A stretch of DNA of 64,000 bases from an uncultured bacterium. Lineage in GTDB: Bacteria > Zixibacteria > MSB-5A5 > UBA10806. The notes under the pieces are model-generated. The model was not told the origin of the DNA. It did not search any database and saw only the letters and a list, made by a program, of their open reading frames with translations. The stretch is from the NCBI GenBank assembly GCA_965541585.1, contig CBEUCH010000005.1, positions 64,001-128,000 on the forward strand, given 5' to 3'. The position numbers and the translations under genes are program-made. Shown here in pieces: positions 61,925 through 64,000 of this stretch (positions are counted from its first letter, which is position 1; each line of letters opens with the position of its first letter).

Positions 61925-62081
61925 GGATATGAAGTAATATTTCACGTTCCGGCCATCAGCTTTTCCTAGGTAGCAAGCTGCCTGCCGACATTTCTATCCA
62001 ACAAGACAGTTTCCTTGACATGGCCGCTGCGGATACGAGCCTTGCGATCAAAAAAGATCACGACCCGGGTTGAAGCAACTC

Positions 62082-63083
62082 TCAAAGATGCATTCCGTAA
62101 CTCAGGCCGAATCTGGCCGTCCAGTCCTCTGTCAACTGGCTGCCATTGACATTCTGATAAATTGGTATCTCCAGATTGCTCCACAATTGCAACCCATGAA
62201 TGCCCCTGCCAAGAATGCTATAAGTAATCCCCGGCGAGACATAAATCCAGTCTCCCCCGCTGCTTGCGAAAACCTGACCGTCTCGTTTGTCTTTAGCTCT
62301 GTGGAGCGCATTCATGCGGAAGGAAAAATCCAGCCCGGATTGATTAGAGAAGATTAGCGAGTAAGCTGTGCCTATTCCGTATAGGAAAAAGGTTCCTGAT
62401 TTCGTTCCGTCATCTGATTCACTTAAGATAGGGCGGGCATACAGATTGGCGTTCGCGCTCCACGGTCCCTGAAGCGAGAAAACCATAGAGGCCAGAAAAA
62501 CCGGATCAACCGTCCCGCTGATGAAATTCTTATCGGAGCTAATCGGATTCTCAATGCCTTCTCCTACAGGGATATTGGTGCCGGCCCCCGCAGACAGCAT
62601 GGTCGGGGCGGCGAAATAGCCGAAGGACCAGAAGTATTGCGCTACCAGGGTCAGATCGCCAAATTTCGTGTCACTGTCCTGGACGCTGCCAAGATTAATG
62701 AAGTCCACGCTCAGAAGCGGAAGGGTAGCCTGCAAGGCCAGGCGGTTTGTGAGACCGTAATCAAGTTGCCCGGTATAGACCCGGGCGCGGGTAGCCTGAT
62801 CCATCGGGTTGCTCACAACTTCCGTGCCAGCGCGAAGATCAGCCCGCTTGCTGTAACTTCCCGTGAAGCCGAATTGAATATGTCCCTTGTGCAGGGCGCT
62901 CGATTCGGTCCTGCCGACCGGCAGGTGCGGTGAGCTTCAAAGGCCTCATTGACCTATGGCGACCTTAGCCAGCGGGATACTCAAGGCGATGGATGCCGCC
63001 AAGAACCATGCGGCTAAGTTTGTTGCCTTATTCTTCATTGAGAATCCCCCCGAAACTGCCCCCGATGCTGATTGCTGATGCAT
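62082..63083 (-). CDS. Putative UxxU selenoprotein, secreted outer-membrane beta-barrel/transporter-like
   Basis: Continuous frame from ATG 63083 (RBS AAGGAG) or ATG 63038 through a signal peptide, CAA-TGA-GGC-CTT-TGA-AGC (TGA 62946-62948 and 62937-62939) into track ORF 62082-62816. LDYG, FGD, PIYQNVNG.QL and GLSY barrel features. Confidence 0.8.
62910..62925 (-). promoter_or_regulatory. Bacterial SECIS-like hairpin
   Basis: CCUGCC-GGUC-GGCAGG starting 11 nt after the second in-frame UGA. Confidence 0.75.
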
Positions 63084-63244
63084 AATCTGATCTCCTTAAA
63101 TGTCCCATAGTGTGTCACAGTCCATCACTGCCGAACCTTGATGGCTTGCTGTGACCACCTCAATCTTCGGAGCTACAGGCCGCCCGCGGACGGCCATTTC
63201 CAAGTTGTCAGTTTTGTGGATAGCAGTTTCAGCCAAAAGGTTCC

Positions 63245-63283
63245 CCTACGCCGGCGGCCCTCAGGGTGGTTTCATCCGGTCCG
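63245..63283 (-). repeat. Diverged second copy of the thioredoxin-like gene 3' end
   Basis: Encodes GPDETTLRAAGVG versus GPDEAALKAAGLG in the gene itself (63319-63358). Confidence 0.75.
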
Positions 63284-63293
63284 AGAGCTTCTT

Positions 63294-63572
63294 TCAGGAT
63301 GAGCCGGTTATTGGTCGCCCGAGACCGGCCGCTTTCAGGGCGGCTTCATCCGGTCCGCTATTAACGCAACAATCTGCTATCTTGCCATCAATCAAAACCG
63401 CCGGCACGGTGCGTATCCCCAGGCTCCTGGCCGCTTTCGCTACCCTGTCATCATTCATGTCATGCACGGTCACCTCGCATGACGGGCATGCCAGCCTGTT
63501 GACCATTTGAATTACCTCATTGCATGGGGGGCATCCGGCGCTGAAAATCTCTACTTTTCTTCTGGTGGCCAT
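63294..63572 (-). CDS. Small thioredoxin/glutaredoxin-fold protein with CPPC, CPSC and CC motifs
   Basis: VEIFSAGCPPC, GIRTVPAVLIDG, DCC...GPDE..L.AAG; RBS AAGGAG. Confidence 0.88.
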   Translation of the reverse strand: MATRRKVEIFSAGCPPCNEVIQMVNRLACPSCEVTVHDMNDDRVAKAARSLGIRTVPAVLIDGKIADCCVNSGPDEAALKAAGLGRPITGSS

Positions 63573-63668
63573 AACTTTCTTCTCCTTCTATGGTTTGAAT
63601 CCCGATGCCGTGCGCGGCGAGCGACCTGGCCGATCGTTAGTGGTTTCATTTCAAGACCTCCACCCTGA

Positions 63669-63700
63669 ATAATACACCCTGTAGTATACTACAGGGTCAA
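63669..63700 (-). promoter_or_regulatory. MerR-family operator/promoter
   Basis: TTGACC-20 bp-TATTAT with a perfect 22-bp palindrome ACCCTGTAGTA|TACTACAGGGT (63676-63697) over the spacer. Confidence 0.85.
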
Positions 63701-63747
63701 GAGTTTTTTTACGGTCTTTTGTATTTTCGACGAAAATTATCCTGTCA

Positions 63748-64000
63748 CTAATACTTCTTGCGCCGCTCTATCATATAATTGGAGCCGTGCAGCGTTTTGG
63801 TGTATTTCTTCAGATCCGCCATCATATGGCTCATCTCCCCCGGATGCTGGAACATTCTTTTCTGATTGTTAAGTACCGCGATCGATATTGTGATGATCTC
63901 GAAACGCTCCATTTCGCCCCTGCGGTTCGGAACATCGATCCATCCCCTCTCCCGGTCGACCTCGGCATAGCGAAATGGCGCCATACGATCAAAAGTAGCT
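63748..64000 (-). CDS. C-terminal end of a GGDEF-type (diguanylate cyclase-like) protein; runs off window
   Basis: FD..AP..Y...DRERG.I...NRRG....F.I.TISIAV...ADLKKY.K...GSNY..ERR is typical of GGDEF C-termini. The active-site motif lies outside the window. Confidence 0.7.
   Translation of the reverse strand, partial: ATFDRMAPFRYAEVDRERGWIDVPNRRGEMERFEIITISIAVLNNQKRMFQHPGEMSHMMADLKKYTKTLHGSNYMIERRKKY

Follow-up and report, generated by a model that had tools for sequence, protein, structure and literature searches.

The channels of the outer membrane that belong to COG4313/PF13557, such as Pput2725 (4RL8) and FapF (5O65), consist of a 12-stranded barrel that follows a short N-terminal segment. 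In Pput2725, the 14 N-terminal residues enter from the periplasmic side and fill the lumen, and the substrates proposed for the channel are hydrophobic organic compounds (PMC4493636, accessible text). Selenoproteins are also listed for the outer membrane, namely the GSU2204 family (NF041027, an MtrB/PioB barrel) and the TonB-dependent receptor FCYXU (NF049945, CxxU; PMC13188914, Table 1). Both place selenocysteine (Sec) in an outer-membrane barrel, as does the protein described below, but they belong to other barrel families and have one Sec each. The UxxU motif, which the preliminary description of the locus had associated chiefly with SelL, is also listed for three prokaryotic families: the Prx-like PF00578, the metal-binding, HMA-like NF041115 and the FmdB-like TIGR02605 (PMC13188914). 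These families likewise carry two Sec three residues apart, but in small soluble folds and not in exported barrels; NF041115 is also linked to metal binding of the mercury type, as we propose for the barrel. Similarly, ExtI of Geobacter sulfurreducens is a predicted 12-strand porin tied to selenium biology. However, it belongs to a phosphate-porin Pfam family, contains one Cys, and is not described as a selenoprotein in the accessible part of the report, in which the neighboring ExtKL is the selenoprotein (PMC5877670).

The mer operons provide a second term of comparison. With them, the Zixibacteria loci described here share a firmicute-type operator, a co-oriented merR with three Cys, and MerTP/MerC transporters; in the Zixibacteria loci, however, merA is mostly absent, and thioredoxin-like genes and an outer-membrane barrel are added. 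To our knowledge, the classical mer operons do not include an outer-membrane channel of their own. Outside mer-resistant aerobes, the passage of Hg(II) across bacterial membranes is poorly understood (PMC12915048, accessible text).

The window, i.e., the whole stretch of 64,000 nucleotides that was analyzed, contains a gene (Table 1) that is a real, uncatalogued di-selenocysteine variant of this known channel fold and is tied to a merA-free mer-like regulon. We are highly confident that both UGA codons of the gene at 63038-62082 encode Sec. We hold with the same confidence the fuller reading that SelB decodes both codons by means of one hairpin and that the product is an exported, COG4313-type 12-stranded outer-membrane barrel starting Q-U-G-L-U.

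Table 1. Features of the di-selenocysteine barrel gene and of the region upstream of it (window coordinates).
Feature	Position	Strand	Remarks
Predicted selenoprotein gene, 318 aa	62082..63038	-	Signal peptide, Q-U-G-L-U and COG4313-like 12-stranded barrel; alternative start 63083
Predicted signal peptide, 29 aa	62952..63038	-	Predicted helix 2-19
Proposed Sec codon 1 (UGA), TGA1, mature residue 2	62948-62946	-	TGA in 14/14 UxxU rows of alignment A2
Proposed Sec codon 2 (UGA), TGA2, mature residue 5	62939-62937	-	TGA in 16/16 rows
SECIS-type hairpin, 6-bp stem, GGUC loop	62910..62925	-	-10.1 kcal/mol alone
Predicted barrel, 12 strands, mature residues about 24-289	62085..62882	-	pLDDT mostly above 90
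About 74-nt repeat of the 3' end of the glutaredoxin-like gene	63261..63335	-	Absent from contigs of runs X1 and X2
Glutaredoxin/thioredoxin-like gene (CPPC, CPSC, CC), without signal peptide	63294..63572	-	Recurs in related mer-like operons
merR 5'-end remnant, about 20 codons, frameshifted, rest deleted	63589..63649	-	Compared with MerR alignment
MerR-family promoter	63669..63700	-	-35 TTGACC, 20-bp spacer, -10 TATTAT, perfect 9-4-9 palindrome 63697-63676

On the minus strand, the frame 63083-62082 has stops at codons 46 and 49 and at its end only, and all three are TGA. The ORF called with table 11 (62082-62816, 244 aa) starts with GTG and lacks both a signal peptide and the first barrel strand; the earlier view that this frame continues upstream to 63038 or 63083, interrupted by two TGAs only, agrees with the translation. 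From the ATG at 63038, a 29-aa leader resembling those of the orthologues (roughly 17-33 aa) precedes Q-U-G-L-U-S-S-P-H-L-P-V-G-R and then a strand-rich body. The family pattern A-x-A/G followed by Q suggests cleavage after A-I-G, and we infer that the protein is exported and its leader removed. The alternative start, ATG 63083, has a better Shine-Dalgarno sequence than ATG 63038. The database relatives found in a first search are all N-terminally short (212-280 aa). Among contigs from four sequencing runs, some span the TGA positions, and no difference was seen among the rows listed, which leave out 110 others; no conclusion here draws on this comparison.

Close homologues bear labels that place the genome in the phylum Zixibacteria. 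A sequence search of 285 genomes of the phylum gave matches to the barrel in 69. In 14 of the 15 best phylum matches, this genome (G000) included, exactly two TGAs stand in the same place and read [QG]-U-[AG]-L-U; the fifteenth is interrupted by a contig end. These matches span four families and nine genera at 24-61% identity, in genomes that are related to one another and are thus not independent samples. Three weaker paralogues have one TGA each, in the register of the second Sec. In metagenomes, a scan with a DNA pattern that permitted TGC or TGT at the first Sec site returned 17 matches, of which two were due to chance and 15 were family members, all 15 with TGA at that site. A separate phylum scan with narrow peptide patterns recovered just three loci. 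The leader, both TGAs and the hairpin are also kept in a second lineage, a marine clade that accounts for seven of the 15 metagenome members and whose homology extends over 137 columns (hhalign 96%, E 4e-9). This clade probably represents Marinimicrobia/Fidelibacterota, judging from labels on one neighbor cluster and one homologue only. The clade is plentiful in marine contigs; it comprises 283 clusters at 90% identity, and all 120 listed entries start downstream of the motif.

In G154, a further divergent UxxU barrel lies behind an exported HMA-thioredoxin. A subfamily with a single Sec (L020, L026 and L050, from G276, G157 and G155) has the same hairpin with a compensatory C-G/G-C swap; in L020, which lies near a di-haem peroxidase gene, a thioredoxin domain is fused to the C-terminus of the barrel.

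Among 107 distant representatives (270-365 aa), 63 carry a Cys pair within five residues directly behind the leader, seven have a single Cys there and 37 have none. The column of the second Sec holds Cys in 61 of 103 database proteins, and a Cys partner for the first Sec exists in a handful only, e.g., P0100 (C-T-G-C-A-N-P-H-L-P), in the same register. According to the preliminary description, homologues with CxxC, CxxU or UxxC at these positions would lend support. An exact CxxC is present in a few (P0100, P0117, P0096, P0087 and P0137, by eye); in the majority of Cys homologues, a CC, CxC or CxxxC begins at the column of the second Sec. The database entry of P0036, which falls in the core clade, opens with M-C-S-S-R at the position of the second Sec and may point to a UxxC variant. 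In the tree (quick mode, midpoint root), which we use for this point only, the core clade has a support of 99 and no full-length di-Cys members. The tree does not show a single origin of UxxU; seven changes were counted, at least five of them forced by starred branches, in part through N-terminally short database rows within the clade.

The Sec machinery, whose absence would have told against the first interpretation, is present in G000 (98% complete): selA, selB and selD score over the cut-off in one cluster on contig C11, and a tRNA-Sec, i.e., selC, lies about 6 kb from it. The selD gene itself has an in-frame TGA. Because selA occurs in 264 of the 285 Zixibacteria genomes, all carriers of the di-Sec barrel included, co-occurrence with the machinery discriminates little. 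A second TGA, in frame with selD and ahead of its predicted start (L110:8627-8875 region, C11), is probably the stop of an upstream frame, and the single TGA inside the selA match of G130 (C64:9741-11075) may be a terminal stop or mark a broken gene. In G000, TGA is a normal stop that ends 561 of 1582 long open frames, which, together with the Cys found in homologues, rules out decoding as Trp. As a check on chance, 2483 in-frame TGA-N6-TGA pairs were counted in G000; in four of them, an ATG lies 20 or more codons upstream and 150 or more codons stay open downstream, and by eye only the one in the 62082-63038 gene has a GGTC hairpin.

The hairpin noticed at the outset behind the two TGAs is conserved. 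The consensus model of the bacterial SECIS has a loop of 3-9 nt, a stem of 4-16 bp, a spacing of 16-37 nt and an MFE <= -7.5, and also asks for a G within the first two loop positions (PMC13188914, accessible text). The structure at 62925-62910 agrees with all four criteria of this model, and both UGA spacings (17 nt behind UGA2 and 26 nt behind UGA1) fall within its range. Its folding beats shuffled sequences only modestly (z -1.8 to -2.4; 3-13 of 200 shuffles equally good), so the evidence comes from conservation. Across 16 sequences, 92.4% of cells are paired, with double changes at three pairs; none of 500 shuffles reached the pairing or the covariation score, 28 of 500 reached the pair count and slid controls were 26-57% paired, in a comparison that the relatedness of the 16 sequences can inflate. 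Independently of that comparison, the codons within the hairpin are frozen (Val GTC in 16/16, Pro CCG in 15/16), whereas a Pro three codons upstream uses four codons; in L014, Pro is changed to Ser and a G-U pair is retained. Two HdrA selenoproteins of G000, members of a listed CxxU family (PMC13188914, table), have a GGUC hairpin that resembles this one, at 27 nt, which places the 26-nt spacing within local use. One hairpin appears to serve both UGA codons. Rfam returned no SECIS family for positions 62000-64000, with two chance matches only. Across the phylum, the UGA-plus-hairpin pattern gave 32 matches, 14 of them seemingly chance or unrelated, and controls gave seven.

The barrel proposed in the preliminary description was recovered by structure prediction. 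A model built from a 14-row alignment had a pLDDT of 76; from 123 rows, with the leader removed, the values were pLDDT 90.8 and pTM 0.87, with 12 strands and with residues 1-17 under 50. The top structure match is 4rl8_C (Z 26.4, rmsd 2.4, 257 aligned residues, model 9-287 on chain 1-268, 16% identity), and FapF follows at Z 23.9. The protein has no Pfam match, and thus lies below the PF13557 threshold; among orthologues, L018 scores 24.7 (cut-off 22) and L006 21.1, and 34 of 123 aligned family members match PF13557 at E<=0.001. When PDB sequences were searched with the profile of the family, the single match was weak and unrelated. In comparison with 4RL8 and FapF, the N-terminal segment is eight residues longer and carries UxxU. 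Residue 9 of the model aligns with residue 1 of 4RL8, and the Sec pair is among the low-pLDDT residues 1-17; by analogy with Pput2725, it plausibly lies further along the N-terminal segment, in the barrel lumen.

The setting of the gene is related to metals, in contrast to aromatic uptake for COG4313 or amyloid export for FapF. The operator of the window agrees at 15 of 18 positions with the firmicute MerR consensus, which likewise has a 20-bp spacer, whereas the CueR (19-bp spacer) and ZntR consensus sites differ (PMC1526738, accessible text, the comparison leaving aside CadR/PbrR). The promoter was missed by a sigma-70 scan, which is blind to 20-bp spacers. No transporter genes are found in the mer-like locus of the window, and merR is represented by the remnant only. 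The one intact merR of G000, on contig C1 (TIGR02051 155.9, cut-off 150.85), has an operator near-identical to that of the window, which makes regulation in trans plausible; the window gene is probably under this MerR. The C1 gene heads a second mer-like operon (C1:100.2-103.7 kb; L051:8227-11727), with a DF-family thioredoxin, a small Grx-like ORF, MerTP, a lipoprotein, a Cys-pair paralogue of the barrel and a SagB-like gene; merA is absent from it. At C4:7674 and C10:98074, G000 has two more sites that differ from the MerR-type palindrome at no more than one position and are possible members of the regulon.

A mer-like context (merR, merT/merC and thioredoxin-like genes), mostly without merA, surrounds the barrel gene in 9 of 14 orthologues. 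Seven of the 14 follow an intact merR at a distance of no more than 1.2 kb, in the company of merTP or merC and of a thioredoxin that is DF-family or Grx-like; in G000 and G087 (contig end) the context is partial, and in the other five (G153, G155, G156, G122 and G043) adjacent mer genes are absent. All nine aligned MerRs retain three Cys with CX8C, a pattern that we take to mark divalent-metal sensors and to exclude CueR. TIGR02051 is the top model for the seven MerRs scanned, and the G000 copy is over its cut-off. MerR-like genes occur in 37 of the 285 genomes. A family barrel lies within 5 kb downstream of 13 of the 45 merR matches (seven UxxU, two Cys-pair and four Cys-free), and the other 32 have no listed barrel nearby, in a count that took in 39 barrel matches only, chiefly from merR-bearing genomes. 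Three barrel subfamilies therefore share the slot in the merR operon, and Sec is not required to fill it. The four Cys-free barrels are each followed by an HMA protein. They form a third, COG4313-like subfamily (L112-L115; G089, G090, G153 and G156) with the mature start QGPPINT, and the HMA protein next to them is exported. In many Zixibacteria, further merR loci (L116-L128) hold merR, a DF-family thioredoxin, merC and a Grx-like gene; the stretches examined contain no merA and no barrel, which suggests a common reductase-free metal module. Among 17 carrier genomes, merA is over the cut-off in two, not beside the barrel; the best merA match of G000 is below the cut-off and lacks the C-terminal Cys pair. 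No hgcA was over the cut-off in 18 genomes. The scarcity of merA and the hgcA result both tell against a classical mercury role. A merB search was silent in the same number of genomes, as was its control search, so that this zero does not show absence. A plasmid search gave two distant "transporter" matches for the barrel and none for the marine protein.

As a function, we give an even chance to a soft-metal capture channel, with Hg as the first candidate, whose lumen-facing N-terminus binds the metal by two selenolates. If, as in Pput2725, the N-terminal segment lay in the barrel lumen, both selenolates would be in the pore. A soft divalent metal, with Hg(II) or organomercury as the first candidates, could then be held by the Sec pair in a two-coordinate Se-M-Se site. 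It might be exchanged with periplasmic Cys-pair carriers, either the HMA domains found in MerT-MerP fusions or HMA proteins that stand alone. With the barrel gene presumably under a MerR-type switch, and because merA is usually missing, such a system would more likely capture, buffer or hand on the metal than volatilize it. Recoding signals, fold and regulon association are shown by the computation; the lumen position, the metal binding, the hand-over to HMA domains and the identity of the metal are proposals. Against this function stand the five orthologues with no mer genes next to them, the 32 merR matches that lack a listed barrel, the Cys-free barrels in the same slot, the broken merR of the window and the hydrophobic substrates proposed for Pput2725. 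A bolder version, in which the barrel is a dedicated outer-membrane mercury receptor or channel with a di-selenolate lumen plug in a merA-free Zixibacteria system and its marine Marinimicrobia relatives form an ocean-wide, selenium-based surface trap for soft metals, seems doubtful to us.

The spacing of UxxU and CxxC is that of a classic redox motif, and the pair might instead be a redox-active diselenide, acting as a gate or in thiol/selenol exchange and cycled by a periplasmic thioredoxin, in a barrel that moves thiol, S/Se or organic compounds and for which metals are incidental. Genes of thioredoxin fold do stand beside most operon copies, a thioredoxin is fused to the C-terminus of both the single-Sec L020 and the Cys homologue P0060, the UxxU barrel of G154 follows an HMA-thioredoxin that is exported, and a DsbD-like gene lies upstream of the barrel in G025. 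However, in the mer-like operons the Grx-like and DF-family partners have no visible signal peptide and hence no direct reach to a site in the outer membrane, the CC, CxC or CxxxC of most Cys homologues would fit metal ligation better than catalysis, and the operator belongs to the MerR class, which senses metals. On balance, this redox role is rather unlikely.

It is unlikely as well that the barrel serves as channel or receptor for a nutrient soft metal such as copper or silver, in which case the mer-like setting in Zixibacteria would be a local recruitment and the marine clade would use the barrel to scavenge trace metals. CsoR/RicR-like repressors adjoin two of the closest orthologues (L037 and L065) and a CopA-type ATPase adjoins the G130 copy. 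The marine clade has no mer genes: in its seven loci and in L072, no metal genes were found nearby, and the marine barrels lie among housekeeping genes, which also tells against a classical mercury role. Against copper, the regulators of the window gene and of seven orthologues are three-Cys and MerR-like, not CueR-like, the operator fits the MerR consensus and not that of CueR, and the transporters are MerT/MerC-like.

Finally, it is very improbable that the TGAs are true stops or are rarely read, be it in a pseudogene, in an attenuator that senses selenium or with the second UGA alone decoded, so that the shorter ORF or nothing would be made. The window does show decay upstream of the gene (merR remnant and local duplication), and two UGAs three codons apart that both need decoding should lower the yield. 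However, the TGAs, signal peptide and hairpin are kept at such low identities and in a second lineage, both spacings suit the 16-37 nt rule, termination at UGA1 would yield a mere 30 aa, and the shorter ORF is devoid of export signal and first strand.

The di-Sec barrel is absent from the published inventories that were consulted, in keeping with the initial impression of an unrecognized type of selenoprotein. The 2026 table of 119 prokaryotic selenoprotein families has no COG4313-type entry (PMC13188914), and no NCBIfam model (June 2026) matches the window protein or eight relatives. The barrel is also absent from the accessible passages of the 2022 review, of BSepDB, with part of its supplement covered, and of deep-Sep. 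A literature search, with subscription papers and the full Haft and Tolstoy 2025 outside its scope, returned no description of a di-Sec COG4313-type barrel. The gene adds a large and systematically mis-annotated selenoprotein family, and the combination of two Sec with an outer-membrane barrel is one that the 2026 inventory lacks. One SECIS apparently serving two UGAs 9 nt apart offers a testable case of the spacing tolerance of SelB. For soft-metal capture, the gene is a concrete candidate for an outer-membrane component of Hg(II) passage and comes with a merA-free mer-like operon.

Other genes with in-frame TGAs were encountered as well. In G000, two Ser/Thr kinase-TPR-like genes, L107 (C9:95927-98617, plus strand) and L108 (C25:23911-26553, minus strand), each contain an in-frame TGA that is spaced as CxxU and lies some 70 aa from the end, and GGUC-loop hairpins follow at 17 and 23 nt; this type is absent from the 119-family table (PMC13188914). 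In L040, L041 and L043, the gene after the barrel is an exported DUF3887-like ORF in which TLLSPT directly precedes the terminal TGA. A short ORF comes next, and the gene may be another hidden Sec protein, of a redoxin-like kind.
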